From: Candidatus Zambryskiibacteriota bacterium
GTDB lineage: Bacteria > Patescibacteriota > Minisyncoccia > Phycocordibacterales > WO2-35-19
Length of the DNA: 64,000 bases
Direction: 5' to 3'
Assembly: GCA_016932555.1 (NCBI GenBank)
Contig: JAFGCQ010000004.1
Coordinates: forward strand, 990-64,989
In this document: positions 1,929 to 64,000 of the stretch, one piece after another
How the letters are laid out: every line of letters begins with the position of its first letter
Numbering within the stretch: position 1 is the first letter of the stretch
Notes under the pieces: generated by a model
Seen by the model: only the letters and a program-made list of their open reading frames with translations
Database searches by the model: none
What the model was told of the DNA's origin: nothing
Position numbers and translations under genes: made by a program

Positions 1929-2000
1929 AAATTAAATATATCATAAAAAAGCCGCCCCAATAAAAATAATTATCAAGGCAGCTCGCTTTTAAAAATAAAA

Positions 2001-2354
2001 CTAATGCACCTCTTTGGAAAAAACAAAGGACATAAAGAAATCTTGCTGCTCTTTTCTCGCTAGAGCATCTTTGATTGCTGGCCTTAGTATCTCAGACAAG
2101 GCTTCAGCCGCTTCAATAGTAAGTAATAATTTAATTCTTCTTTTACCGCCGCGCCTCACAAGTTCCAATTGCATAGGCTCAAGCTTGCCGTTTTTTACAT
2201 CTTGCGGTCCAATTTTTTGCTGGAAGACAAGTATTAAATCACTTGAATAAACTCCAGCTGGAAATACAGATACTTGTCGGCCACCACCAAGAAATCTGCA
2301 ATAAGCCATAGGTTTTTTGAGCATGTTGAAACAGTTAAAGAATGTTTTGAGCAT
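2001..2354 (-). CDS. Hypothetical protein
   Basis: ORF-track 2001-2396 trimmed to the internal ATG, which is preceded by a strong GGAGG Shine-Dalgarno. Confidence 0.45.
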   Translation of the reverse strand: MLKTFFNCFNMLKKPMAYCRFLGGGRQVSVFPAGVYSSDLILVFQQKIGPQDVKNGKLEPMQLELVRRGGKRRIKLLLTIEAAEALSEILRPAIKDALARKEQQDFFMSFVFSKEVH

Positions 2355-2477
2355 AAAGACCTCCTTCTGCCTTAGATAATACCCAAAATTTCGCAAAAAA
2401 CAATCTCCAACAAAGAAAAAAGGAGGAGGGCTCCCCTTCTCCTTTTTGAGTGTGGTCTAATATTTTTTACCTTGACA

Positions 2478-2507
2478 CAGACTACTTGTCCTGAGTTGAG
2501 CCGAAGG
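2478..2507 (+). repeat. GC-rich short repeat CAGAYTACTTGTCCTGAG..GAGYCGAAGG, intergenic copy
   Basis: About 26/30 identical to 6036-6065 inside gatA, same orientation. Confidence 0.7.
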
Positions 2508-2646
2508 AGTGGTTTACTATGAGCCTGTCGAATAGACGATGCCCGCCACGTGATAAATTGTGTAGCAATTTATTTTACGTGGTTAGAACTGCAATTATGA
2601 GTAACCACACGCATTTTCCTGAAATAATTTATGCTAAAATAACTTC

Positions 2647-3129
2647 ATGAAGAAAATCAATATTTATATTGATGGAAATAATCTTTATCGCAGTGCCAAA
2701 GAACTCGGATTTGAAATTGATTATAAAAAATTTAGAGGCTGGCTTCGCCAAAAATACAATCCGCAATTTGTTTATCTTTTCATAGGTCTCGTTCCAGAAA
2801 GGGCAAAATTCTATGAATATTTGCAAAAATCAGGGTTTATTTTGGTTTTCAAACAAACCGTATCGGTTGGAGAAAAAATAAAGGGAAATTGCGATGCAGA
2901 ATTAGTGTTAAAAACCACTTCTGATTTTTATACCAAAGCTTTTGATTCCTGTATTTTAATAACAGGAGATGGGGATTTCGGCTGTTTGGTAGAATTCTTG
3001 CAAGAAAATAAATCGATGAATCGTGTTATAGCTCCCGATGAAAATAAATGCTCTTTTTTATTAAGAAATAAAAATGTTGAGATAACATTCTTAAACGACC
3101 ACTACCACAAGTTTTCTAAAAAGATATAA
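2647..3129 (+). CDS. NYN/LabA-like domain protein (putative RNase)
   Basis: INIYIDGNNLY ... ITGDGDFGCLVEFL pattern typical of NYN/LabA domains. Confidence 0.65.
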   Translation: MKKINIYIDGNNLYRSAKELGFEIDYKKFRGWLRQKYNPQFVYLFIGLVPERAKFYEYLQKSGFILVFKQTVSVGEKIKGNCDAELVLKTTSDFYTKAFDSCILITGDGDFGCLVEFLQENKSMNRVIAPDENKCSFLLRNKNVEITFLNDHYHKFSKKI

Positions 3130-3250
3130 AAGAAAAAGCCCCCGGTGCAGACGAATCTACACAAGGGTCTTTTTCATAGTGATACCTAGAGTATATACCT
3201 AAAAAAATATCTGTCAAGCAAAGTTGTGGATGATGTTAGAACTGATATAT

Positions 3251-3288
3251 TAAAAAGAAAAAGCCCGTTGATATTATCTCTGGGCTTT
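3251..3288 (-). terminator. Rho-independent terminator downstream of 3334-3705
   Basis: AAAGCCC/GGGCTTT stem followed on the minus strand by TTTTTCTTTTT. Confidence 0.5.
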
Positions 3289-3333
3289 GTTTACCGAGAA
3301 GAGTTTTTAACCCAATCCTCCTCGCCCTTAACT

Positions 3334-3705
3334 TCATGCAGGGCTTTGAACACTGAGTGTTGAGTATATGTTTTCCAGAGATATTCGGTTTTCTATCCCT
3401 GCTGCACCAGGAGCATCTGCACTTCCACGAATTTCAGGATGCTGATAATGCCAGTTGCGAGTCCATTCTTTGTCAGTCTCAACAATAACTGCATCAACTG
3501 GTATTCCATGTTCTTTAGCAAAGACAAAAATACTCGCTACAGCAATCTGACCGTTCAAACAGAATGCTTTATTTCCCAAGTATTCAATAACCTGTTCAGC
3601 GTTATTGTTCAGATTCTGGCGCAAATAAAAATAAGAGTATTTTGGTGAAATATTCGTTGGCGCGACCGATGGGATTTGGTCAGGAATATCCCACCCTTCA
3701 GTCAA
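3334..3705 (-). CDS. Hypothetical protein, possibly a 5'-truncated gene fragment
   Basis: Only a TTG start, no internal Met. The first codons overlap a duplicated tRNA-Asp 3' end. Confidence 0.3.
   Translation of the reverse strand: MTEGWDIPDQIPSVAPTNISPKYSYFYLRQNLNNNAEQVIEYLGNKAFCLNGQIAVASIFVFAKEHGIPVDAVIVETDKEWTRNWHYQHPEIRGSADAPGAAGIENRISLENIYSTLSVQSPA
3660..3674 (-). repeat. Direct duplicate of the tRNA-Asp 3' end (att-like)
   Basis: GCGCGACCGATGGGA is identical to 3862-3876. The duplicate reads ...TCCCATCGGTCGCGCCA in tRNA sense. Confidence 0.7.
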
Positions 3706-23211: not shown

Positions 23212-23433
23212 TTAATTTTTAATTCTTTTAACATTTGATACATGTATCGGTGCGGCTTGATCAACTATTTTACCTTTTTCGTTACTCTTTTTTCTGCGTT
23301 GATGAACTTTTTTAATATTTATTCCTTCAATTAAAACCATGTCTGATTTAGGAAAGGCGCGTAAAATTATACCAGATTTACCTTTATCCTTACCAGTTAA
23401 TACTTTTACTTTATCTCCTTTTTTTACATGCAT
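23212..23433 (-). CDS. rplX: 50S ribosomal protein L24
   Basis: [19 protein letters not shown] motif. Confidence 0.85.
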
Positions 23434-23437
23434 ACTC

Positions 23438-23537
23438 TCGAATATTACGAATAAGATCGAATAATACGAATCCTATTTTTGCTATTAATTTGATTGTTCT
23501 TTATTTGTAGCATTCGATTAAATTTGTGGTTATTCGC
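23438..23537 (-). repeat. 100-nt intergenic element, copy A (between rplN and rplX)
   Basis: 99/100 identical to 33287-33386. Contains four CGAAT motifs about 9-10 nt apart. Confidence 0.9.
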
Positions 23538-32736: not shown

Positions 32737-33282
32737 TTATATCTTCTTTACCTGCAAAAAGTCAAGCTCTACTGGAGTTTCGCGACCAAACATTGGGACC
32801 AAAACTTTAACCTTACCTTGTTCTTCATTAACTTCACCCACCTTGCCTTCCAAATCTTTAAAGGGTCCATCTATAATCCTTACTGATTCATCAAGAGAAA
32901 GATCAATATTATGTTTTACTTTATCAGAATGCATCCTGTTAAATAGCTCCTCTATTTCTTTTTTATCCAAAGGTACCGGAAAAACTCCAGCGCCAACAAA
33001 TCCTGTTACTCGAGGAGTGTTTCGAACCACATACCAAGAATCATCAGTTACAATCATATCTACCAGTACATAACCTGGATAAATTTTTTCTTCCTCTTCA
33101 ACTCGTTTATTACCCTTTATCTTGATCTTTTTTTCAGTTGGGACAATAACATCAAAAATTTTATCCTCCATACCCAAAGATTCTATGCGCTGTTTTAGAT
33201 TTCTCATTACAGCATTTTCATAACCAGAATAAGTATGAACAGCATACCAATTTCTTTCGCTTCTTATTTGTTGTTTGCTCAT
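32737..33282 (-). CDS. nusG: Transcription antitermination factor NusG
   Basis: [17 protein letters not shown] domain and C-terminal KOW. Confidence 0.9.
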
Positions 33283-33286
33283 ATGA

Positions 33287-33386
33287 TCGAATATTACGAA
33301 TAAGATCGAATGATACGAATCCTATTTTTGCTATTAATTTGATTGTTCTTTATTTGTAGCATTCGATTAAATTTGTGGTTATTCGC
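33287..33386 (-). repeat. 100-nt intergenic element, copy B (between secE and nusG)
   Basis: 99/100 identical to 23438-23537, same orientation relative to the operon. Confidence 0.9.
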
Positions 33387-34544: not shown

Positions 34545-35363
34545 TTATAGATTATAGTAGCATAAATCTGATAAATTTTGAAATAAACAAGCTATAGTTA
34601 GAGGTCCGATACCTCCCGGTACTGGTGAAATTGCTTTTAATTTATTAACTAATTCAGTAAAATCAACATCGCCCACTATTCTATCTTTCATCTTGTTTAT
34701 TCCTACATCAATAACTACCTGTTCTGGATTTATAAATTTCTCCGTTATAATACCTGCTTTACCGACAGCTGAAATTAATAAGTCGCATTTTTTTGCAATT
34801 TTTTCCGGATTTTTGGTATTGATGTCACAGCGAAAAACTTTTGCACCTCTTTTTTCAAGCTCATCAGCTATAGGTTTACCAGCTAAAATTGACTGGCCTA
34901 TAACTGCCGCTTTTTTGTCTTTAATTTCAAAATTATAAAAATTTAACAACGATATAACTGCACGTGCTGTGGCTGGAATAATTCCACTTCCTGATACTAG
35001 CCCGTCTACATCTTTTCTTTTATCAATCAAATTTATTATCTTTTCTGAATCAAAACCTTTAGACCTGCCTGCGCAAGCAGGTAATGGTAACTGTACAATA
35101 ATTCCATCTACGCTTTTATCTCCATTTAATTTTTTAATCTCTTCTATTAATTCTTTCTCAGTAATATCTTCGTTAAAATTCTTTAACAAAACTTCTACTC
35201 CGATCTCCTCTCCAAATTTGCGCTTGTTTTTAATATAAATACTTGAATCCGGCCGATCTCCAACTTGCACAATGGCTAAACAAGGCTTGCAGCCCAATTT
35301 TTTTACCCTCCTTATTAAATCTTCTTTAATTTTCTCCTTAACAGGAGCCCCATATAAAATCAT
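34545..35363 (-). CDS. folD: Bifunctional methylene-THF dehydrogenase/methenyl-THF cyclohydrolase
   Basis: VQLPLP and GGIGPLT motifs; carries the palindrome insert ACAGRSKG after LPLP. Confidence 0.9.
   Translation of the reverse strand: MILYGAPVKEKIKEDLIRRVKKLGCKPCLAIVQVGDRPDSSIYIKNKRKFGEEIGVEVLLKNFNEDITEKELIEEIKKLNGDKSVDGIIVQLPLPACAGRSKGFDSEKIINLIDKRKDVDGLVSGSGIIPATARAVISLLNFYNFEIKDKKAAVIGQSILAGKPIADELEKRGAKVFRCDINTKNPEKIAKKCDLLISAVGKAGIITEKFINPEQVVIDVGINKMKDRIVGDVDFTELVNKLKAISPVPGGIGPLTIACLFQNLSDLCYYNL
35063..35082. repeat. 20-nt near-palindrome ACCTGCCTGCGCAAGCAGGT (one mismatch), in-frame in folD
   Basis: Variant of the 1432/61388 palindrome. Confidence 0.85.
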
Positions 35364-35366
35364 GAT

Positions 35367-35963
35367 ATGATGATATATATGGATCCCAAAGAAATCAAAT
35401 GGCAGAGATTAAAGAAAATTGTTTTTATTGCTTTTTTGGTTGCTATTGTTGCCAGTCTCATTATTTATTGGGTGTATGGTGAAAATTTTGAGCTGGAAAA
35501 TTTAAAATATCATATAAGCGAATTTGGTATTTGGGCGCCTCTTATTTTTATAATTCTTTTCACTATCAGCACCATTTTCATTCCCTCCACACCATTTATG
35601 ATAATTGGTGGTATTTTGTTCGGCTTTAAATTAGGGTTTTTCTATTCTATAACTGGAGGAATGGCAAGCGCCATTATAGTTTTTTACATTGCCAGAAGTT
35701 TGGGTAAATCAAATATAGAAAAAATACTGGAAAATAAATATCTAAAACCTCTAGATAAATATAACGGCCGTTTAGAATCAGGAGGAATTTGGGATCTTAT
35801 ATTCTTAAGGCTTTTGCCGATAATGCCTTTTAATGTTTTGAATATCTTAATGGGAGTTTCTAAAATAAATTTAAGGAATTATATAATAGGAACTCTCATA
35901 GGGTTCCTGCCAAATAATGCTTTAACTATTTATCTGGGAATTTTAGCTATAAAATTATTTTGA
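35367..35963 (+). CDS. TVP38/TMEM64 (DedA-related) membrane protein
   Basis: Multi-TM with family-typical IPSTPFMIIGGILFG segment. Confidence 0.65.
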   Translation: MMIYMDPKEIKWQRLKKIVFIAFLVAIVASLIIYWVYGENFELENLKYHISEFGIWAPLIFIILFTISTIFIPSTPFMIIGGILFGFKLGFFYSITGGMASAIIVFYIARSLGKSNIEKILENKYLKPLDKYNGRLESGGIWDLIFLRLLPIMPFNVLNILMGVSKINLRNYIIGTLIGFLPNNALTIYLGILAIKLF

Positions 35964-55838: not shown

Positions 55839-56633
55839 CTATCTTGTCAAAACTTCTATTCCATTCTTTGTAACCGCTACTGTATGCTCAAAATGAGCAG
55901 AAAGAGATTTATCACGAGTAATAAAGGTATAGCCATCAGAGAGACGCTTGATTTCACGACTACCTAAAGAAAACATCGGCTCAATAGCAATAACTAGCCC
56001 TTCTCTAAGTTCCGGCCCTTCGCCCCTCTCGGCTCGATTGGGTACATACGGTTCTTCATGGACACTATAACCTACCCCGTGACCTGACAAGCCTTCTATT
56101 ATGCCCAAATTGTATTTCATAGCCACTTGCATAATAGCCGCCCCAATATCACCTATATGGCCACCGATTTGCATAGTGTTAATGCCTTTTTCTAAAGCTT
56201 CATAAGTCGCTCTAATGAGAGTCGCGGCATCATCGCTAATTTTACCAACTGGTACAGTAATGGCTGCGTCAGTAATCATGGGTCTTACTTGTGGTGAACC
56301 AGTCAAACTATAAGTAAAACCCATATCCAAAGAAACGATATCTCCTTCAAATAAAATCCGATTGCCGTCATGATTTGGAATACCGTGAACAATTTCTTCA
56401 TTTATGGAAACACAAAGCGAGGCCGGGTAGGGTTTTGAAGCATCATCAGATTGATAGCCAAAAAAAGAGCCGACGCCACCCGCTTCATCGATAAGTTTTT
56501 CGGCGTAATCATTAAGCTCTTGAGTTTTAACCCCTGCTTTAACTTTTTGGGCCACTTTTTTTAAAATCTTCGCGTGAATCTTACCTCCTTCCCGCATCAC
56601 TGCTATTTCTTCTTCTGTTTTGTATTTGATCAT
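55839..56633 (-). CDS. map: Methionine aminopeptidase type I
   Basis: Family-typical metal-ligand segments (D..D..H..E..E). Confidence 0.9.
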   Translation of the reverse strand: MIKYKTEEEIAVMREGGKIHAKILKKVAQKVKAGVKTQELNDYAEKLIDEAGGVGSFFGYQSDDASKPYPASLCVSINEEIVHGIPNHDGNRILFEGDIVSLDMGFTYSLTGSPQVRPMITDAAITVPVGKISDDAATLIRATYEALEKGINTMQIGGHIGDIGAAIMQVAMKYNLGIIEGLSGHGVGYSVHEEPYVPNRAERGEGPELREGLVIAIEPMFSLGSREIKRLSDGYTFITRDKSLSAHFEHTVAVTKNGIEVLTR

Positions 56634-57220
56634 AATCCAATTTTGCTTATTATCTCTTTATGAACTTCATCGATTGTTTGTTCGCCGTTTATTTCTATAA
56701 ATTTATAATAGTGATTGTTTTTGAGATATTCCACAGTTGGTAAAACTTTTTCTTTAAACCAATCTAGCCTGTTTTTTATATCTTCTTCATTGTCATCAGT
56801 CCTGCCTCTATCTTTCATTAGCTTGGTAACCCATTCATTTGAAGCATTTATCGAAATAACCATTGGGTTCTCTCTTTCATAAAATTTTAAAGCATCACTC
56901 AGTATATACGCTTCACCAAGTTTACGAGGTGTACCATCAAAGAAAATAGTCACATCTGGAGAAAGCTCTTCAACCAAGCGCTTAGTCCAAATGTAGATAG
57001 GCATAAACTCAGGAACTAATTCACCCTGATCTAAAATTTTTTTGACTCTTTGGGATGTGAAAGATTGGGTTTGGGTAAGTTTTCTAAATCCTTCCCCAGT
57101 TTCTATATAGATAATTTTTTGCTCAGGATATTTTTTCTTAATTTCTTCCTGTAGGAGCTTAGCTTGGGTACCCTTACCGCAACCAGATGGCCCTAAAAAT
57201 ATGAAAGTTTGCGGTTGCAT
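56630..57220 (-). CDS. adk: Adenylate kinase
   Basis: P-loop GPSGCGKGTQ. ATG at 57220 preferred over the ORF-track start at 57247. Confidence 0.85.
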   Translation of the reverse strand: MQPQTFIFLGPSGCGKGTQAKLLQEEIKKKYPEQKIIYIETGEGFRKLTQTQSFTSQRVKKILDQGELVPEFMPIYIWTKRLVEELSPDVTIFFDGTPRKLGEAYILSDALKFYERENPMVISINASNEWVTKLMKDRGRTDDNEEDIKNRLDWFKEKVLPTVEYLKNNHYYKFIEINGEQTIDEVHKEIISKIGL

Positions 57221-57240
57221 GAAATAAGTATAACATAAAT

Positions 57241-57285
57241 CCCCCACTCGGGACTAGTCCTCGACCTCCCCTTGATCAGGGGAGG
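57241..57285 (-). repeat. Family B-related GC-rich element (hairpin CCTCCCCT-TGATC-AGGGGAGG)
   Basis: Shares both ends with 57657-57702; direct repeat flanking the DUF559 gene. Confidence 0.6.
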
Positions 57286-57305
57286 CAATGCGCGATAATT
57301 AGGAA

Positions 57306-57656
57306 ATGACAAGAGTTCATAATATCCGCAAACTTTCAGATCGCAGGAAAGAATTACGAAAAAACCAAACAAAAACCGAAGAAAAACTCTGGTGGTATTT
57401 GAAAGATAAGAGGCTGGGAATTAAATTCAGAAGACAGCACAGTATAGGAGGATATATTTTAGATTTTATATGCAAAGAAAAGAAATTGATTATAGAAATT
57501 GATGGTAGAGTACATTTGAAAAAAGATAATAAAGAATACGATAAAGTTAGAGACAAATATTTTGAAGAGTTAAATTATAAAGTTCTGAGATTTACGAATG
57601 ATGAGGTTGAAAATGGGGTTAAAGAGATTATTGATGTTATAAAGCGGTATCTTTAA
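57306..57656 (+). CDS. DUF559 (Vsr-like) endonuclease-domain protein
   Basis: TEEKLWWYLK...FRRQHSIGGYILDF...IEIDG..H...D..RD..L...GY.VLRF pattern. Confidence 0.8.
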   Translation: MTRVHNIRKLSDRRKELRKNQTKTEEKLWWYLKDKRLGIKFRRQHSIGGYILDFICKEKKLIIEIDGRVHLKKDNKEYDKVRDKYFEELNYKVLRFTNDEVENGVKEIIDVIKRYL

Positions 57657-57702
57657 CCCCCACCCCTCAATTCGTGTAGCCCTTCTCTTGATCAGGGGAG
57701 GG
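57657..57702 (-). repeat. Family B GC-rich element, inverted copy
   Basis: Its reverse complement aligns along the whole length of 58407-58451 (about 80 percent by eye). Confidence 0.75.
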
Positions 57703-57724
57703 AAAACCAAAATCATACAAAAAG

Positions 57725-57748
57725 AAAACCGCCATTCAGCGGTTTTCG
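57725..57748. terminator. Bidirectional terminator between convergent genes
   Basis: AAAACCGC-CATTCA-GCGGTTTT with T-runs on both strands. Confidence 0.6.
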
Positions 57749-57770
57749 GTTGAAAATCATTGAAGAGCGA

Positions 57771-58322
57771 TTATATCAAAATCCTCCCATTATACTCATG
57801 GAACCCGATTTCTCCACTGGTAGCCGTGAAAAAAATATGCTCCATTCCAGCAAAATTTTCGAATCCGCCCCCGAGAAAAATAGTGTTTTCATACTTAAGA
57901 AGGTTTTTATCATAGTTTCCTACACGAGTATCATTATAAAAACCGTGTGTAGCTAAACCTCGTCCACCATGGAATTCACGTTGTTTGTAGGCGTAATTAA
58001 GCGCCATTTTCAAAAAACTGATCACTTCCTTAGGATAACATCCAGAATAAGACATCCACCACACGGCCATCCATCTTCCTCTGGGTCTGAACCTATAAAA
58101 GATAGTGGTTGTACCGGCGGAAAAATCTGAAAGCGGTGTCACACAATAGTGATCTACCACTTTGTAGTTACCGGATACAAAAGTGATTCTTTTGTATCCG
58201 CTAGATTCTATGACTTTAACAGAATTCTTTTTGTTTCCAGCATATCCGTCAAGCATAGCATCGAAGAATACTTTTTCTGCTTTTTGAATGATTTTCTTTC
58301 TCTGTTTGGACTCTAGTTCCAC
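57771..58322 (-). CDS. Hypothetical protein, DUF5680-like (tentative)
   Basis: Pattern ...AMLDGYAGN...W.MSYSG....EVISFLK.AL...FHGGRG recalls DUF5680. From memory only. Confidence 0.4.
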   Translation of the reverse strand: MELESKQRKKIIQKAEKVFFDAMLDGYAGNKKNSVKVIESSGYKRITFVSGNYKVVDHYCVTPLSDFSAGTTTIFYRFRPRGRWMAVWWMSYSGCYPKEVISFLKMALNYAYKQREFHGGRGLATHGFYNDTRVGNYDKNLLKYENTIFLGGGFENFAGMEHIFFTATSGEIGFHEYNGRILI

Positions 58323-58406
58323 TGTTGGCTCCTTTCACCCATTAGGTCTGACTCAGGTTATACAACAATATAAAAATTAAAGCAAGAATAAAAAATACCG
58401 CGCGTT

Positions 58407-58451
58407 CCCTCCCCCGTCCAGGGGGAGGGCTACACGAAGTGAGGGGTGGGG
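58407..58451 (+). repeat. Family B GC-rich element abutting the secY stop codon
   Basis: CCCTCCCC-CGTCC-AGGGGGAGGG hairpin plus CTACACGAAGTGAGGGGTGGGG tail. Confidence 0.75.
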
Positions 58452-58452
58452 A

Positions 58453-59724
58453 TTAATATTCTCTTGCAGAGATTTGAGCATCAACTTTTTTAACGAGATC
58501 AAGAACCACTGAAACTACGATAAGAAGTCCTGTACCGCCTATAGCCACTGCGCTGATACCAGTAGCCGCCCTTACTATTAAAGGCAAAACAGCAATTAAT
58601 CCCAAGAAAATAGCGCCAATCATGGTTAAACGGGAAAGGATTTTGGCTATATATGAGGAAGTCGAGGAACCGGGTCGAACTCCCGGAATAAAAGCACCGC
58701 CTCTCTGTAAATTTTTGGAAAGATTCTCCGGATCAAAAGTAATAGCTGTGTAGAAATAAGTAAAAACAAAAACTAATAAGAAGTAGGCAATGCCATAAAA
58801 AATCTGGTTAGAAAGCAAAGCAAGTAGAAATTCAGAAATCTTTTGGATTATAGTATTGTCTACATTAGCTAAAAAGCGGATTATCATTTGAGGAAAAAGT
58901 AATATGGAAAGAGCAAAAATTATAGGAATCACCCCAGCTTGATTAACTCTTAAAGGTAAATAAGTGGAAACTCCACCATACATTTTATTACCTCTAACTT
59001 GTTTAGCGTAAGTTATCGGTATGGGTCTTTCTGCTTCAGTAATAACTACTACACCCCAAATCACTGCTATGGCAGCCGCCAGAAAGCCAATATACATCGG
59101 CAATTGAGATGGATCAAAAGCAAATAAAAGCTGGCTAGTCGCACTGGGTAAAATAGCAACAATGCCGGCAAAAATGATAAGCGAGACTCCGTTACCAATA
59201 CCAAATTCAGATACTAACTCACCAAGCCACATAAGAAGCATTGAACCGGCAGCAATTACTATAAGATTTGTTAGCAATTCAAAACCAGCAAGTTTACTTA
59301 AAACATTCTGATTTTGAAGAAGAATAATAAAAGCATAACCTTGCATTAAAGCTAGAGGCACAGTCAAAAATCTTGAATATTGAGAAAATTTTCTGCGTCC
59401 TAATTCACCCTCTTCTTGATACATAGCCTTGAGTTTAGGAAACATAACAGTCATAAGCTGCATAATAATAGAAGCGGTAATATATGGCGACACACCGAGC
59501 ATAATAATTGAAAGATTAGACAAACCACCACCCGAAAAGATATTTAAAAGTCCAAAGAAATCATTATCAGACATAAACTGCTCTAATTTAAAAGTATCAA
59601 TACCGGGAATTGGGATAGAGGCCATCAAACGGAAGAGAGCCAACATTACAAGGGTAAAAATTATTCTCTTTCTTAAATTTTTATCCCCTAAGACTAATTT
59701 TATTTTGTGAATAAAATTTTGCAT
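58453..59724 (-). CDS. secY: Preprotein translocase subunit SecY
   Basis: Ten-TM SecY sequence; follows rplO. Confidence 0.95.
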   Translation of the reverse strand: MQNFIHKIKLVLGDKNLRKRIIFTLVMLALFRLMASIPIPGIDTFKLEQFMSDNDFFGLLNIFSGGGLSNLSIIMLGVSPYITASIIMQLMTVMFPKLKAMYQEEGELGRRKFSQYSRFLTVPLALMQGYAFIILLQNQNVLSKLAGFELLTNLIVIAAGSMLLMWLGELVSEFGIGNGVSLIIFAGIVAILPSATSQLLFAFDPSQLPMYIGFLAAAIAVIWGVVVITEAERPIPITYAKQVRGNKMYGGVSTYLPLRVNQAGVIPIIFALSILLFPQMIIRFLANVDNTIIQKISEFLLALLSNQIFYGIAYFLLVFVFTYFYTAITFDPENLSKNLQRGGAFIPGVRPGSSTSSYIAKILSRLTMIGAIFLGLIAVLPLIVRAATGISAVAIGGTGLLIVVSVVLDLVKKVDAQISAREY

Positions 59725-59729
59725 TCAAT

Positions 59730-60149
59730 TTATTTGCTTAAATTTTTGACCTTTTTTGAAGTTTCAATATTTTCAAAAATAAAGTTTTTCTTTATTTCTT
59801 TATCAGCTAAAATTTTTGCTTTCGGAATTCGGCCGTTCTTTTTATTTATAATACCTTTTTCTAACAAAACTTGATGATTTATCTTATCTCCTGCAGAAAA
59901 ATTTTTATCTAAAATGGAAAGCTTTATTGGCATAGCTTTTTCAAGTCGAGACTTAAGAAAATTTTTACCTCGACCTCTTAATTTTGGTAATTTTTTAATT
60001 ATATCACGCATTTCTGGTCTTTTTTTCCTGCCGGCCCTGGCATTTTGGCCTTTGGTGCCGCGACCAGAAGTCTTGCCGCGTTTACCCCCCCGACCAATTT
60101 TTTTGGCTTTCCGATTAGTTCTATTTTTTTTTAAATTATGGAATTGCAT
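59730..60149 (-). CDS. rplO: 50S ribosomal protein L15
   Basis: GRGGKRGKTSGRGTKGQ motif. Confidence 0.85.
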   Translation of the reverse strand: MQFHNLKKNRTNRKAKKIGRGGKRGKTSGRGTKGQNARAGRKKRPEMRDIIKKLPKLRGRGKNFLKSRLEKAMPIKLSILDKNFSAGDKINHQVLLEKGIINKKNGRIPKAKILADKEIKKNFIFENIETSKKVKNLSK

Positions 60150-60177
60150 TGCACGAATATTACTAATAAGATTAAGT

Positions 60178-60789
60178 CTAAGAATTAATTTTTACTTTTT
60201 CTTTATTTTTCTCTTTCAGTTGTAAAAGAGCTTTTACCGCAGCTCTGGCAATATTAAGCTTGTTTTTTGATCTGGAAAGAATTTTTGAAGAAACTTCTTT
60301 TATCCCAGCCAGTTCGAGAACTACTCTCACTGCACTGCCAGCAATCACTCCTTTCCCAGGAGCAGGATTAAGAAATATTTCAGCACTAGCGTATTTGGTA
60401 TTTACCGGATGAGCAATAGAGCCTTTGTCAGTTAAAGATACTTTAATTATATGTTTTTTTGCGTCTCGGATAGCTTTTTCTATGGCAATAGGAGTATCAC
60501 CAGCTTTACCAATACCCACACCCACTCTGCCTTTTCTATCGCCAATTACTACCACAATACTAAAACTGAACCTGCGACCACCGGCAACTACTCTGGTTAC
60601 TCTTCTAATGTCTATTATTTTATTATCAAACTCTTGTTTAACCCTTGCCGGACGTCGAGAAGGTCGGCGTTCATTTTTTTGTCGAAATTTAGTTTTATTT
60701 TCATTTTTAAAATTGTTGTTTATTTTAGTTTTTTTATCAGTTTTTTCAACTTCTTTTCTATCTTCTTTTTTTATTTCTTTTTCTTCCAT
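60178..60789 (-). CDS. rpsE: 30S ribosomal protein S5 with Lys/Glu-rich N-terminal extension of about 55 aa
   Basis: RVTRVVAGGRRFSF...GVGIGKA core. Confidence 0.9.
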   Translation of the reverse strand: MEEKEIKKEDRKEVEKTDKKTKINNNFKNENKTKFRQKNERRPSRRPARVKQEFDNKIIDIRRVTRVVAGGRRFSFSIVVVIGDRKGRVGVGIGKAGDTPIAIEKAIRDAKKHIIKVSLTDKGSIAHPVNTKYASAEIFLNPAPGKGVIAGSAVRVVLELAGIKEVSSKILSRSKNKLNIARAAVKALLQLKEKNKEKVKINS

Positions 60790-60800
60790 AATAATTTTAA

Positions 60801-61148
60801 TTAAAACTCTAAACCAGCCTTCCTGGCACCCTGGGCTAAAGCAGCAATTCTACCAGTATAAAGATAGCCCTCTCTATCAAATACTACTTTAGTGATTTTT
60901 TTGGTTTTAGCTTGTTTAGCGATTTCTGCCCCAACTTCACCTGCTTTATCTAAAACCGATTTACTTTTAATGTTTTTGCTAGAAGCAAAAGCTAAACTTA
61001 CACCTTTTTCATCATCAATAAGTTGAGCAGAAATATATTTATTCGATCTAAAAACAGAGAGTCTGGGTCTTTCTGCTACACCAAAAATTTTAGCTTTTAT
61101 ACGCTTTTTTCTCCTGTTTCTTTTTTCTGTTTTTAATTTAGTATTCAT
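60801..61148 (-). CDS. rplR: 50S ribosomal protein L18
   Basis: [20 protein letters not shown] motif. Confidence 0.9.
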
Positions 61149-61153
61149 AACTT

Positions 61154-61705
61154 TTAAACTGTTTTCTTACCTTGTTTTCTTCTTATAATTTCATTCTCAT
61201 AACGAAAACCCTTGCCTTTATAAGGTTCCGGTTTTTTTAAGCTTCTTACTTTGGCAGTAAAAGCTCCGACTAACTCTTTATCAAAACCAAATATAGTAAT
61301 GAGATTCTTTTCAGCTTTTACTTCCAAGCCGTCAGGGATTAGAACTTCTACCGGATGGGAAAAACCCAGAGAAAGAATCAACTTATTGCCTGCCTGCGCA
61401 GGCAGGCCATTAACTTGGGATTTAAAACCTACGCCTTCTAATACTAATTTTTTTTCAAAACCATCATTAACTCCTTTTATCATGTTTTTTATATGAGAGG
61501 CATAAGTACCCCATAGAGCCTTAGTTTGATTATTTTCTTTGGGTATAGAAAGATTGATATGATTTTCTTCAATTTTAATTACTACATCATCACGAAATTT
61601 TCTTTCCAATAAACCTTTTGGACCTTTCACAAAAAAAACGTTATCTTTTAAGGAGACTTCTGTACCTGGTAGTATCTTTATTTCTTTTTTACCTATTCTT
61701 GACAT
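61154..61705 (-). CDS. rplF: 50S ribosomal protein L6
   Basis: MSRIGKK start; two L6 repeats; carries the insert GLPAQAG before [12 protein letters not shown]. Confidence 0.9.
61388..61407. repeat. 20-nt perfect palindrome GCCTGCCTGCGCAGGCAGGC, in-frame in rplF
   Basis: Self-complementary; same core as 1432-1449. Confidence 0.9.
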
Positions 61706-61731
61706 AATTATTTATAGTGAGCGTAGTCGAA

Positions 61732-62124
61732 CTACCAAATATTAAACAAATGTTCTCCTCCTAAATTTTCTTTTTTAGCATCAACATCGGTTCTAATACC
61801 TTCAGGAGTCGAAAAAATCGACATGCCAAAACCTTTCTTAAAAATTTTTATGTCCTTAGCTTTAGTATATAAGCGTCTTGATGGCTTAGAAATTCTTTTA
61901 ACTTCAGAGATTACCGGTTTTCCATCCTCTTGATATAATAATTCTACCTCCAGAGATTTTGTGCTGCCGCGACTTTTTTGACTTACATTACCAAGATAAT
62001 TTTTAACAGACAAAAGTTCAGCAATAGCAAGCTTTAAATTGGAAAAAGGCACGGAAACTTTTTCCTTTTTCATAATACTTGCATTCTTCACTCTTATTAT
62101 AAAATCTCCTATTGGATCGTTCAT
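61732..62124 (-). CDS. rpsH: 30S ribosomal protein S8
   Basis: MNDPIGDFIIRVKNA start. Confidence 0.9.
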   Translation of the reverse strand: MNDPIGDFIIRVKNASIMKKEKVSVPFSNLKLAIAELLSVKNYLGNVSQKSRGSTKSLEVELLYQEDGKPVISEVKRISKPSRRLYTKAKDIKIFKKGFGMSIFSTPEGIRTDVDAKKENLGGEHLFNIW

Positions 62125-62163
62125 ATATTTTCTAGGCAGTATCCTGAGCGTTAGCTGAAGGAC

Positions 62164-62349
62164 TTACCAAGAAGCTTTTTTAACTCCTGGAATTCTTCCT
62201 TCGTTAGCAAGTTCTCGAAAACAAATCCGACACAAATCAAAATCTCTCATATAACCTCTACTGCGACCACATTTAAAACAGCGTCTTACAGCTCTGGTTT
62301 TAAATTTAGGCTTTTTTTGAGCCCTTGCTATAACTGAAGTTTTTGCCAT
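62164..62349 (-). CDS. rpsN: 30S ribosomal protein S14, type Z (zinc-binding, 61 aa)
   Basis: [10 protein letters not shown]...CRICFRE Cys motif; ends KASW. Confidence 0.9.
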
Positions 62350-62364
62350 TTCTATTATTAAATC

Positions 62365-62384
62365 CGTCCGTCAGCCGACGGACG
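62365..62384 (-). other. Stem-loop between the RT stop and the rpsN start
   Basis: CGTCCGTC-AGCC-GACGGACG. Confidence 0.5.
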
Positions 62385-62419
62385 AGACCTTCTAAAACTA
62401 ACAAATATATTAAAAAAAA

Positions 62420-63424
62420 TCAAGCGCTTTGCTGTCTTGAGATAACAACGAAGCGTTTACCGTGTCTATTTTTTGGAATGTTTCTATTTAGTTTTTGCAG
62501 TAGTTTAATTTTTAAATCTCTGGAACGGCAGTGATGTAAAAGACCGTTATAAGATGAGAAATTTTTGTCAGTCACCCTATTAAATATTCTTCTTTTAGTT
62601 TTAGTTCTCAAAACTCTATGGTACGGGAAGCAAATATAACCCAAATAATCGATGCCGCTGGCATATGTTTTAAGGATAATTTTTTCAGGGTGGATTTTTA
62701 GCTTCAAATTCTGCCAGCAAAAATCTCGAATCTTAGGTATGCAAGATTCCAGAAAATTTTTATCAGGATGCATCAAAACAAAATCATCAGTATATCTAAT
62801 ATAGCCCTTTACTTTTAAATCATGCTTCACGAACTGATCAAATTTGTTCATAAAAATATTGGCAAATATTTGAGAAGTCAGATTGCCAAGAGGTATGCCG
62901 CAATTGAAACTTTCAACAATGTCCTTGGTTAGGATGATAAGCTCTTTATCAAAAGTCTTTTCCTCTAATATCCGCAGAAGCTTATTATGATCGACAGATT
63001 CAAAAAACTTTCTTATATCCAACTTCAGCACCCAGATAGTTTTGCTGTTATTTCGGGAAATTTTGAGTCCTATTTTGTGGAGTCTTTTAACCGCAGCATG
63101 AGTGCCTTTATATTTTCTGGAAGACCAAGAGTCAAAGATAAATTTTTTATCCCACATTGGCTCTATGACTCTGATTATGGCATGGTGCAAAAGTCTGTCT
63201 CTAACGCTGGCTTTGTTAATGTGCCTCCTTTTGGGATCACTTATATAGAAAGAAAAATATCCGCCATGCCTGTAATTACCGCTTTTCAAATCCTCATGCA
63301 GTTTGAAAATGTTATCTTCCAAACCAAGCTCGAATTCCGCCACATCTTTCTTGCCTCGCTTATCCTTGCGAAACTCAGCCCAAGCGTCGAAGAGATTTTT
63401 TAATGAAATAATTTTTTCAAACAT
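62420..63424 (-). CDS. Diversity-generating-retroelement-type reverse transcriptase
   Basis: RT motifs 1-7 readable: DPKRRHINKASVRDRLLHH, LKLDIRKFFESVDH, GIPLGNLTSQIFANIF, YTDDFVL, GIDYLGY. Start set at MFEKIISLKNLFDAW. Confidence 0.85.
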   Translation of the reverse strand: MFEKIISLKNLFDAWAEFRKDKRGKKDVAEFELGLEDNIFKLHEDLKSGNYRHGGYFSFYISDPKRRHINKASVRDRLLHHAIIRVIEPMWDKKFIFDSWSSRKYKGTHAAVKRLHKIGLKISRNNSKTIWVLKLDIRKFFESVDHNKLLRILEEKTFDKELIILTKDIVESFNCGIPLGNLTSQIFANIFMNKFDQFVKHDLKVKGYIRYTDDFVLMHPDKNFLESCIPKIRDFCWQNLKLKIHPEKIILKTYASGIDYLGYICFPYHRVLRTKTKRRIFNRVTDKNFSSYNGLLHHCRSRDLKIKLLQKLNRNIPKNRHGKRFVVISRQQSA

Positions 63425-63808
63425 ATGAATAGAAACAACAATAATAAAACAGCGGAGCAAACACCATTCTTTCAAGCAGTTTATAAATTGTATCTATCAT
63501 GGTATGTCAGATGCGGACAACTGCCAAAGAAAGACAGGTTTACCATTGGACAGAAGACGGAAAACTTGCTTCTGGAAATTCTCCTGTTAACGGTGACTGC
63601 CTACCACACAAGCAGCTTGGATTTAAAGAGACAATCATTACTCAAAGCCAATACTACTCTTGAATGCGTTAAAATCAGCATTAGATTGGCAAAGGACATC
63701 AAAGCTCTGGAGCAGCATTGGTACATAGATTATCAGAGAAGAATCCAAGAGATGGGCAAGATGCTCGGCGGCTGGATTGCCAGCACTTACAACAAAACGG
63801 GCAAGTAA
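63425..63808 (+). CDS. avd: Avd-like four-helix-bundle accessory protein
   Basis: LPKKDRFTIGQKTENLLLEIL ... IQEMGKMLGGWI pattern; adjacent to the RT. Confidence 0.75.
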   Translation: MNRNNNNKTAEQTPFFQAVYKLYLSWYVRCGQLPKKDRFTIGQKTENLLLEILLLTVTAYHTSSLDLKRQSLLKANTTLECVKISIRLAKDIKALEQHWYIDYQRRIQEMGKMLGGWIASTYNKTGK

Positions 63809-63822
63809 TTTGCCCGTTTTGT
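63792..63822. terminator. 13-bp perfect hairpin with the avd stop codon in its loop
   Basis: ACAAAACGGGCAA-GTAAT-TTGCCCGTTTTGT. Confidence 0.6.
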
Positions 63823-63839
63823 CTGCATGAGAGCGACTT

Positions 63840-63979
63840 CGGAGGGAAACGACACCGAGATTGTCATTCCGATTGTCGGGGTTATTGCCATTGACGTTCA
63901 CGCCATTACGGTCAGCATTGCCGACATACACCAGATTGCCGTCAGAGGCGAGAGTCGTTTCTGCATCACTCCATCCGGA
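63840..63979 (-). repeat. Candidate DGR template repeat (TR; VR not excluded)
   Basis: On the RT strand: aat gct gac cgt aat ggc gtg aac gtc aat ggc aat aac ccc gac aat cgg aat gac aat ctc ggt (NADRNGVNVNGNNPDNRNDNLG). An in-frame TGA at 63980-63982 lies just upstream. Confidence 0.45.
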
Positions 63980-64000
63980 TCAAAGGCCGTAACCGGACAG

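Follow-up and report, generated by a model that had tools for sequence, protein, structure and literature searches.

The 64,000-nt stretch of DNA analysed here (the window) carries a diversity-generating retroelement (DGR) in which the reverse transcriptase (RT) gene and avd (accessory variability determinant) diverge from touching start codons. This arrangement is an ordinary CPR-type head-to-head joint, with the order target (VR), leader, template repeat (TR), reversed avd, RT that is known as Architecture B3. As the original prediction had stated, the two ATGs abut in a CATATG at 63422-63427; the sequence bears this out, as does an independent public gene call in which the RT and avd coordinates abut. 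The finding holds but is an ordinary one: avd is reversed in the textbook, already described layout of CPR DGRs, and the touching ATGs produce the palindrome by themselves, so the observation as stated matters little. The more useful result is the survey, reported here, of about 80 distinct cassettes. The features discussed below are as follows.

62420..63424, minus strand: DGR reverse transcriptase gene, 334 aa (ORF and translation, Pfam, structure match, homologue consensus)
63408..63413, plus strand: AATAAT, a -10-like hexamer in RT codons 4-6, 11 nt before the avd ATG; candidate avd promoter element
63422..63427, no strand: junction, CAT (RT ATG, minus strand) touching the avd ATG in the sequence, with a 0-nt gap
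63425..63808, plus strand: avd, 127 aa, divergent from RT, with its stop TAA at 63806-63808
63792..63822, minus strand: 13-bp stem-loop over the avd stop, 17 nt past the TR; its tail in the TR/RT sense is U-rich
63826..63833, minus strand: CUCUCAUG, 3' strand of helix 3, pairing with leader UAUGAGAG (L002 99-106, outside the window) and closing the TR into a loop
63840..63954 (approximate), minus strand, RT sense: TR, aligning with the TRs of relatives and rich in AAC/AAT codons
63955..64000, minus strand: 3' part of the conserved and structured leader that precedes the TR (alignment of nine relatives, structure support)
L002 36-44, beyond the window end, TR sense: leader -10 element TGGTAGAAT (L002 sequence, alignment of relatives)

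Identity and starts of the RT and avd genes

The 334-aa minus-strand ORF matches the Pfam family RVT_1 (E = 9.9e-25), and its translation, with the N-terminus MFEKIISLKNLF, carries PLGNLTSQ and YTDD; the hallmarks of DGR-clade RTs are a [LIV]GxxxSQ motif and a YxDD catalytic box. When PDB sequences were searched, the best match to a solved structure was 8ub7_A (E = 2.1e-41), one of the entries 8ub7-8ube that we take to be those of the Bordetella phage bRT-Avd-RNA, and retron-type and group II intron RTs were far weaker (best E ~5e-16 to 1e-15). Judged by its sequence, the product of 62420-63424 is a DGR-clade RT. The 127-aa plus-strand product was recognised as bAvd (PF22296, E = 2e-16, 60.9 bits against a curated cut-off of 40), and a PDB sequence search with Avd returned no match. 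By this profile match, the RT is adjoined by an Avd, as is expected of a DGR. RT and avd are both intact genes.

Both starts used in the original prediction are upheld by the homologues. The consensus of 24 RT homologues opens with MFEKIISLENLF, exactly at the Met encoded at 63424, with residues 5, 7, 10 and 11 invariant, and the RT ATG (CAT at 63422-63424) is kept in all close relatives; a longer RT start, the TTG at 63475, found no support. The avd ORF and an ATG at the position homologous to 63425-63427 are kept in 9 of 9 close relatives, where the indels of the N-terminal tail are all in frame, and in the window in-frame stops lie six codons upstream of this ATG. We consider it highly improbable that the zero gap is an annotation artefact in which avd starts further in, at the TTG at 63488, and/or RT starts at an internal codon, leaving a short true intergenic region. 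Late starts would suit the weak conservation of the Avd N-terminal tail (amino-acid identity 0.39 over codons 1-12), and neither ATG is preceded by an SD-like motif. However, SD motifs are rare genome-wide, with SD-like motifs in just 8 of the 90 ORFs in the window and in neither RT nor avd, so the missing SD is uninformative on the starts, as is the ribosome-binding-site check that had been proposed. Use of the TTG (codon 22, the next in-frame avd start) would moreover cost the conserved QTPxFQ residues upstream of it, and even the latest starts leave at most ~126 nt between invariant residues.

Tightness of the joint among relatives

The start-to-start gap is 0 nt in L003-L008, the cassette of Zambryskibacteria RIFOXYD1_FULL_40_13 with its nearly identical layout, 1 nt in L089-L096 and 4 nt in L009, L010 and L103 (the last taken from the public gene call), and stays at one of these values in relatives with 63-81% RT identity; L099 and L100, which have an HTH gene in place of avd, and L101 and L102, with a truncated avd call, are uninformative on the gap. 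Kept in this way among related sequences, the tight joint exceeds chance. Since naive start picking made the gaps of distant relatives too ambiguous, distances between invariant residues were used instead. From the invariant Avd Pro codon to RT position 10 we found 106-182 nt in 78 of 80 unique loci, and 126 nt in the window, where the gap is zero. Room for an intergenic promoter was seen in only two of the 80 loci surveyed; together with the 0-nt gap in the window, this sustains the claim that the joint leaves no intergenic space for promoters. A compact joint (0-4 nt) and a reversed avd thus mark the family as a whole.

The CATATG is an automatic result of two abutting ATGs. It was considered as a motif and rejected, as it is not enriched in the window (8 copies versus 12.0 ± 3.4 expected) and close relatives show CATTATG or CATATTTATG at their joints. 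The palindrome is incidental, and we infer that neither it nor the exact 0-nt gap carries a function of its own.

Compact divergent starts had also been suggested to be a habit of this genome, on the example of folD and the TVP38 gene. The 3-nt gap of that pair is real (CAT at 35361-35363, ATG at 35367), with in-frame ATGs at 35370 and 35379 as further possible starts, and same-strand gaps in the window are likewise short (median 26 nt). Both observations would favour reading the RT-avd joint as neutral compaction in a streamlined genome and not as a DGR property, a reading to which we give very little credence. The habit itself is weak: on a crude ORF map, folD/TVP38 is the only divergent pair in the window comparably tight to RT/avd, six other pairs are spaced by 45-347 nt, and the crude ORFs of one more overlap by 56 nt. 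A third apparent tight pair proved spurious, with one ORF lying over a tRNA-Leu. Against a genome habit also stands the recurrence of the tight avd/RT joint in ~80 distinct cassettes, which come from varied genomic contexts in many lineages of CPR bacteria. The tightness is a property of the DGR family, and the compaction accompanies the cassette through many CPR lineages.

The cassette has the B3 layout

In the window the order is TR (63840-63954, minus), avd (63425-63808, plus) and RT (62420-63424, minus), and these coordinates confirm that the entire avd gene, in antisense, stands between the minus-sense TR and the RT. The order TR-(avd)-RT was named "Architecture B3" by Wu et al. (2018, Nucleic Acids Res 46:11, PMC5758913), who give B3 as the layout of 90% of 126 CPR DGRs. 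The present locus, with TR, avd and RT in this order and avd on the reverse strand, is of this type. It is not of type B1, which has co-directional avd, TR and RT with avd upstream of the TR, because here avd lies on the opposite strand and between the other two. The comparison of gene order across homologous DGR loci that had been proposed supports this, as avd is reversed and head to head with RT in 90 of the 91 related loci that have it and the joint measures 0-4 nt in close relatives. The supposed departure from "canonical" DGRs accordingly falls away: avd-TR-RT is the B1 order of the Bordetella phage, and the CPR norm, in these loci and in Wu et al., is B3. Set beside B3 as that paper describes it, the window shows the same order, orientation and CPR host, would likewise have its target gene upstream and on the strand of the RT, and shows nothing different in kind. 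The paper has no mention of promoters, and its available text gives no description of a near-zero spacing of the start codons.

With the B1 cassette of BPP-1 (mtd-avd-TR-Sp-brt, all co-directional), the window shares a DGR-type RT, Avd and an adenine-rich TR, as well as a duplex of the segments flanking the TR upstream and downstream and a stem-loop just after the TR. The two differ in that an opposite-strand avd fills the entire TR-to-RT interval of the window, whereas BPP-1 has a 140-nt non-coding spacer supplying the primer. The TR of the window is preceded by a ~300-nt conserved structured leader, whereas BPP-1 requires only 20 nt upstream, and one avd-TR-RT transcript is impossible here.

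Template repeat and structure of its RNA

The TR was assigned in this cassette by alignment to the TRs of relatives, and it is in relatives that adenine-specific TR/VR mismatches are seen. In 75 of 75 testable loci the TR adjoins the avd stop (median distance 18 nt; 31 nt in the window), is in the RT sense and shows adenine-specific mismatches to a VR, and where the VRs of relatives diverge from the TR, they do so almost exclusively at its adenines. Neither a repeat search nor the A-free 3' end of the TR revealed a VR copy in the window; the public contig stops ~290 nt beyond it. The target gene of this cassette, expected to be C-type lectin-like with a VR at its C-terminus, would lie past the end of both the window and the 4275-nt Logan contig. 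In the relative L003, two target genes lie upstream.

The TR RNA appears, from the alignments, to have a conserved -10 element of its own and a structured leader of ~300 nt, a detail that is new. TGnTAnAAT is conserved 6-7 nt before the invariant GGCTAATGAAGGA in the alignment of nine relatives and in the L002 sequence. For the leader/TR region, the fold obtained from an alignment of seven relatives has 96.5% of cells paired and 15 pairs changed on both sides, whereas shuffles gave 6.8 ± 1.7 such pairs and slid controls no more than 5. Helix 3 of this fold has 8 pairs, 100% of cells paired and one pair changed on both sides. Searching Rfam with the cassette and L003 gave chance-level matches elsewhere, and none on the leader or TR.

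The stem-loop over the avd stop, likewise a new detail, recurs throughout the family. A 66-nt stretch that includes a second small hairpin folds at -29 kcal/mol (z = -4.9), the stem (helix 8) shows compensatory changes among relatives, and 79 of 80 unique loci have the stem-loop, within the avd ORF in 29 and across the avd stop in 42. Family-wide, the 9 nt after the stem hold a mean of 6.05 T (baseline 3.04). A U-tail in the TR sense (at least 5 T of 9) follows it in 59 of 79 loci versus 19% of background windows, and an A-run on the avd-sense side was found in only 8 of 79. Lys codons at the C-terminus of Avd account for part of this U-richness. Among 278 DGRs with an Avd, including those of CPR, Handa et al. 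(bioRxiv 10.1101/2023.10.23.563531) described post-TR stem-loops, together with duplexes between upstream and downstream segments, in 207. Both elements, the post-TR stem-loop and the duplex flanking the TR, are present in the predicted fold, and by analogy they may serve Avd binding and the stop of cDNA synthesis.

Promoter-like signals at the joint

On the avd-sense strand, -10-like hexamers cluster in RT codons 1-7, with 68 matches in two 10-nt bins across the 80 unique loci versus a mean of 5.9 per bin; this peak is inseparable from protein constraint, as it coincides with the conserved K-I-I-S codons of RT. No sharp -10 peak was found upstream of RT in the same loci. AT content is highest at the joint (0.69-0.77 versus 0.61 overall). 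A consensus promoter scan of 62100-64000 yielded 7 sites versus 4.5 ± 2.2 in shuffles, none well placed for RT or avd. The promoters of CPR bacteria are in general poorly characterised. The promoter/terminator scan of this interval also missed the avd-stop stem-loop, probably because too few T's are left once A/U tracts count as stem.

Synonymous-site conservation was assessed in nine related sequences as a means of revealing promoters embedded in the genes or a spacer RNA antisense to avd. A raw signal at both 5' ends (0.67 and 0.66) was mostly gone after correction for amino-acid degeneracy. The greatest excess of identical synonymous codons, a modest one, fell in RT codons 1-12 (ratio 1.26); avd codons 1-12 showed no excess (1.04), nor did the 3' third of avd beyond the stem-loop (0.94-1.09).

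Proposed transcription of the cassette

As there is no intergenic room, and TR and RT share a strand to which avd is antisense, either promoters lie within the genes themselves or TR and RT share a transcript that is antisense to avd; the original prediction posed this choice, and it does follow from the zero gap and the strand layout. The explanation that we find probable, if by no means secure, is a B3 joint with a separate TR RNA unit and with the avd and RT promoters embedded in the first codons of each other's gene. The TR RNA would be its own unit, starting at the conserved extended -10 element ~300 nt upstream of the TR. It would cross the structured leader, whose UAUGAGAG would pair with CUCUCAUG just past the TR, and next reach the U-tailed stem-loop overlapping the avd stop. 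This is probably the Avd-binding stem-loop described for DGR RNAs, and probably also a partial terminator between the convergent TR and avd units, bidirectional in this window. The avd promoter would lie within the first ~10 RT codons, and RT may be driven by a weak promoter located where AT-rich codons encode the variable N-terminal tail of Avd, by read-through of the stem-loop, or by both. The avd and RT mRNAs would be nearly leaderless, with no Shine-Dalgarno.

Alternatively, the leader promoter could drive a single long RNA through TR, antisense avd and RT, with RT having no promoter of its own; this seems to us rather unlikely. Such an RNA, antisense to all of avd, would couple Avd with RT and TR-RNA levels by transcriptional interference or RNA duplex formation. 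It would fit the co-stranded TR and RT of 75 of 75 loci, the position of the sole clearly conserved promoter-like element upstream of the leader, and the failure to find a sharp -10 peak before RT; Wu et al. also remark that most DGRs could form one transcription unit. Priming in the prototype DGR requires 140 nt of RNA past the TR, a segment that in this cassette would be antisense avd, and this need argues that the TR RNA extends well into antisense avd and does not stop at the stem-loop. However, a TR-sense U-tailed stem-loop follows the TR in most family members, often within the avd ORF, which fits transcription largely stopping there, and the synonymous sites of avd past this stem-loop show no excess. 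Full-length antisense pairing would, moreover, oppose Avd synthesis, and the prototype RT without Avd has no reverse-transcription activity. A broader reading, which we regard as doubtful, is that in B3 CPR DGRs avd is built into the canonical non-coding TR-to-RT spacer, which would make the cassette a rearranged DGR RNA architecture and not just a gene flip. The post-TR elements (the Avd-binding stem-loop and perhaps the primer region) would then be encoded antisense to the avd 3' end, other roles of the spacer would have shifted to the structured ~300-nt leader on the 5' side of the TR, and RT synthesis would depend on read-through of a TR-sense terminator within avd. If true, this would build antisense coupling of Avd, RT and TR-RNA dosage into the cassette.

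With the TR at a median of 18 nt from its stop and RT 0-4 nt from its start in close relatives, avd is wedged in almost without slack, so that neither the single avd-TR-RT transcript of the Bordetella-phage model nor its non-coding spacer is available to these cassettes. For reconstitution of CPR DGRs, or targeted mutagenesis with small RTs, the functional TR RNA probably includes the ~300-nt 5' leader and probably ends in avd or runs antisense through it, and promoters must sit inside coding sequence.

Host range and genomic setting

The cassette sits in a genome of Candidatus Zambryskibacteria, the organism given in NCBI's name for the RT protein. All relatives with a named organism are CPR/Patescibacteria MAGs, bar a few that are likely mis-binned. 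Roux et al. (2021, Nat Commun 12:3076, PMC8144416) reported a DGR clade 2 restricted to Patescibacteria/CPR, and say nothing on strand or avd. The window resembles this clade as a cellular, CPR-restricted lineage, an assignment made by host and homology only. No recurrence of ribosomal genes was found beside related cassettes; the cassette in the window lies directly upstream of rpsN.

Divergent RT and avd genes with touching start codons

We found that the locus is a standard diversity-generating retroelement (DGR) of Architecture B3, in which the reverse transcriptase (RT) and accessory (avd) genes are intact, their starts abut and the template repeat (TR) lies in RT sense. The features of the cassette are as follows.

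62420–63424, minus strand: RT gene, 334-aa ORF from the ATG at 63424 (Pfam RVT_1, E = 9.9e-25)
63408–63413, plus strand (avd sense): AATAAT, a -10-like hexamer 11 nt before the avd ATG
63425–63808, plus strand: avd, 127-aa ORF from the ATG at 63425 (bAvd PF22296, E = 2e-16, above the curated cut-off)
63792–63822: 13-bp stem-loop spanning the avd stop codon, a helix of the consensus fold
~63840–63954, minus strand (RT sense): TR, placed by alignment with the TRs of relatives
36–44 of L002, the public contig copy of this genome, outside the window: extended -10 element TGGTAGAAT, from the sequence and the alignment of relatives

The plus strand at the joint reads ...ttcaaaCATATGaatag..., with CATATG at 63422–63427. 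Two abutting ATGs necessarily spell this palindrome, and the word is not enriched in the window (8 observed versus 12.0 ± 3.4 expected). The original prediction that RT and avd diverge from touching ATGs at this site was borne out by the sequence, the ORFs, the starts of homologues and the gene calls stored with the public contig copy, whose coordinates also abut. The RT translation contains PLGNLTSQ and YTDD, and its top solved-structure match is 8ub7_A (E = 2.1e-41); retron-type and group II intron RT structures matched far more weakly (best E ~5e-16 to 1e-15).

Mis-assignment of the RT start, the avd start or both is unlikely. The consensus of 24 RT homologues begins exactly at MFEKIISLENLF, with residues 5, 7, 10 and 11 invariant, and ATG TTT/C GAA/T AAA is kept at the RT start in all close relatives. 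The avd ATG is found at the homologous position in nine relatives despite in-frame indels in the adjoining 10–14-residue tail, and the window has in-frame stops six codons 5′ of it. A longer RT ORF from the TTG at 63475 was without support and was rejected, as was the next in-frame avd start, the TTG at codon 22, which would remove the conserved QTPxFQ. The proposed check of alternative starts against ribosome-binding-site models did not help: a Shine-Dalgarno-like motif (GGAG, GAGG or AGGA no more than 20 nt upstream of the start) precedes only 8 of the 90 crude ORFs across the whole window, and neither RT nor avd has one, so such models are uninformative here. Little Shine-Dalgarno initiation seems to take place in this genome.

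Conservation of the tight divergent layout

The reversed avd had been regarded as a departure from canonical DGRs, but it is not unusual. In their classification of DGR cassettes, Wu et al. (2018, PMC5758913) use the name Architecture B3 for the order TR-(avd)-RT in which avd is encoded on the reverse strand. We surveyed ~100 related loci independently; 80 came from reference genomes and 10 from metagenomes, and several were reached by protein look-up. The gene-order comparison called for by the prediction revealed an opposite-strand avd, head to head with RT, in 90 of the 91 loci possessing avd. The literature already gives this gene order and orientation as the norm for CPR bacteria (Patescibacteria), and this locus adds another B3 member; the near-zero start spacing and a family-wide terminator-like stem-loop in the avd 3′ end are incremental details, a description of which was not found in the DGR literature examined.

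As a start-independent measure of spacing, we used the distance from the near-invariant Avd proline codon (LPKKDRF) to RT profile position 10. This distance is 126 nt in the window, equivalent to zero gap, and 106–182 nt in 78 of 80 distinct loci (median 143). The predicted absence of intergenic promoter space was confirmed, and essentially no family member could accommodate a conventional promoter region between the two genes. Among close relatives, where starts align unambiguously, the start-to-start gap measures 0 nt for the window and L003–L008 (the Zambryskibacteria RIFOXYD1_FULL_40_13 cassette type), all with CATATG; 1 nt (CATTATG) in the related loci L089–L093, L095 and L096; and 4 nt (CATATTTATG) in L009, L010 and L103. 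The tightness of the joint is conserved; the palindrome is not.

Compact divergent starts had also been suggested as a habit of this genome, and folD and a TVP38-like membrane protein gene are indeed head to head (window 35361–35381), with the folD CAT at 35361–35363 and the TVP38 ATG at 35367, or in frame at 35370 or 35379, leaving 3–15 nt between starts depending on the ATG. This is, however, the only other tight pair in the window: by the crude ORF map, the gaps of six further divergent pairs measure 45–347 nt and a seventh pair comes out as overlapping by 56 nt, which makes a genome-wide habit unlikely. A third apparent tight pair was discarded as a false ORF over a tRNA-Leu.

Two of the surveyed loci, L099 and L100, carry at 1978–3448 an RT homologue (P0063, 64% identity) without avd or TR, together with a co-directional 176-aa ORF that has weak HTH_23/HTH_28 matches and overlaps the RT start by 8 nt. 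These are probably decayed or rearranged cassettes.

A structured RNA flanks the TR

The TR was found where it had been anticipated, in minus sense with antisense avd between it and RT. Two upstream variable repeats (VRs) of L003 depart from its TR almost only at TR adenines, and a TR with such adenine-specific mismatches, in RT sense, is present in all 75 loci with sufficient upstream DNA. In these loci the TR end lies a median of 18 nt from the avd stop (range -10 to 51); because this distance and that between RT and avd are so short, avd is closely hemmed in by TR on one side and RT on the other. Neither a VR nor a target gene of this cassette is visible: the window holds no VR copy, and the public contig stops ~290 nt beyond its end. 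Sharing the reading frame of the TR, an ORF of 97 aa (63638–63931, minus strand) continues through the stem-loop into antisense avd and is probably no gene but a side effect of that frame.

Structured RNA flanks the TR, and a stem-loop lies over the avd stop. Close relatives share a -10 element upstream of the TR, in the extended TGnTAnAAT form in six of nine, followed after 6–7 nt by an invariant GGCTAATGAAGGA and a conserved ~300-nt leader (L002 36–335, comprising window 63955–64000 and ~250 nt past the window end; L003 7225–7460). No Rfam family matches the leader. The consensus fold of seven relatives has eight helices with 96.5% of cells paired, and 15 pairs are changed on both sides, whereas shuffles gave 6.8 ± 1.7 and slid partners no more than 5. 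In one helix, leader UAUGAGAG base-pairs with CUCUCAUG, immediately 3′ of the TR (window 63826–63833), so that the TR is closed into a loop; the leader also has a variable insertion loop, as well as several helices with compensatory changes. The VR usually lies ~450–500 nt upstream of the TR on the same strand in the 75 loci, and this roughly constant spacing suggests a leader of comparable length throughout this DGR clade.

The 66-nt stretch around the stem-loop folds at -29 kcal/mol (z = -4.9), and a GC-anchored hairpin occupies the equivalent site in 79 of 80 distinct loci, across the avd stop in 42 and within the avd ORF in 29. In TR/RT sense the hairpin is followed by a T-rich tail (mean 6.05 T per 9 nt; 59 of 79 loci have 5 T or more), compared with a mean of 3.04 T, and at least 5 T in 19%, for background antisense-avd windows; only 8 of 79 loci show the mirror-image A-run. 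Owing to this U-tail the stem-loop looks like an intrinsic terminator of the TR RNA, and since the one in the window is symmetric (AAAA...TTTT), it could terminate the convergent avd mRNA too. A "cPRT Stop duplex" and an "Avd-binding stem-loop just downstream of TR" have been described in 207 of 278 Avd-containing DGRs, CPR included (Handa et al., bioRxiv 10.1101/2023.10.23.563531); the leader/post-TR helix and the stem-loop fit these two descriptions.

Promoter-like signals and expression of the cassette

AT content peaks at the joint (0.69–0.77 versus 0.61 overall across 80 loci; 0.725 in the window). On the avd-sense strand, -10-like hexamers pile up within RT codons 1–7 (68 in two 10-nt bins versus a mean of 5.9 per bin; 80 loci), which protein constraint alone could explain because conserved K-I-I-S codons, read on the opposite strand, spell the hexamer. 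Upstream of RT, enrichment of such hexamers is diffuse and no more than two-fold. Before correction, both genes show elevated synonymous codon identity at their 5′ ends; after correction for amino-acid degeneracy, RT codons 1–12 are modestly high (1.26), and avd codons 1–12 (1.04) and the avd 3′ third (0.94–1.09) are unremarkable. A generic promoter scan of the region gave no informative signal.

We propose a scheme whose chances we judge to be roughly balanced. The TR RNA would be its own unit, partly terminated and convergent with avd, whose promoter would lie inside the first RT codons; RT expression would rely on the AT-rich codons that encode the variable Avd tail, on read-through, or on the two together, and the RT and avd mRNAs would be nearly leaderless. 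The main alternative, put forward in the original prediction, is one transcript for TR and RT that runs antisense to the whole of avd. Although the prototype DGR requires 140 nt of RNA downstream of its TR and there is no clear RT promoter, both of which favour a single transcript, the terminator-like element in TR sense and the dependence of the prototype RT on Avd speak against it, and we regard it as doubtful. A separate TR unit and a single transcript are compatible, not mutually exclusive. There is also a small chance that the RNA of B3 DGRs is rearranged, with spacer functions in the 5′ leader, downstream elements antisense to avd and RT expression dependent on read-through.

Genomic neighbourhood

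The cassette lies directly upstream of, and on the same strand as, rpsN-rpsH-rplF-rplR-rpsE-rplO-secY (window 56000–62420, minus strand); rpsN is normally preceded by rplE. Just 70 nt and one GC-rich stem-loop (62366–62386, z = -2.5) lie between the RT stop and the rpsN start. Ribosomal-gene neighbours were found at none of the ~100 related cassettes. Just downstream of secY, an ORF of unknown function (183 aa; 57771–58322, minus strand) is bracketed by 52-nt inverted repeat arms (57653–57704 and 58405–58456, 85% complementary), and a similar CCCCTTGATCAGGGGAGG hairpin-like sequence lies near 57260–57300; the inverted-repeat unit may represent a small element of mobile or repeat type. The G+C content of the window is 35%. 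An apparently non-coding, CGAAT/ACGAAT-rich direct repeat of 107 nt (23431–23537 and 33280–33386, 96% identical) is also present, the second copy of which holds one of the eight CATATG sites.
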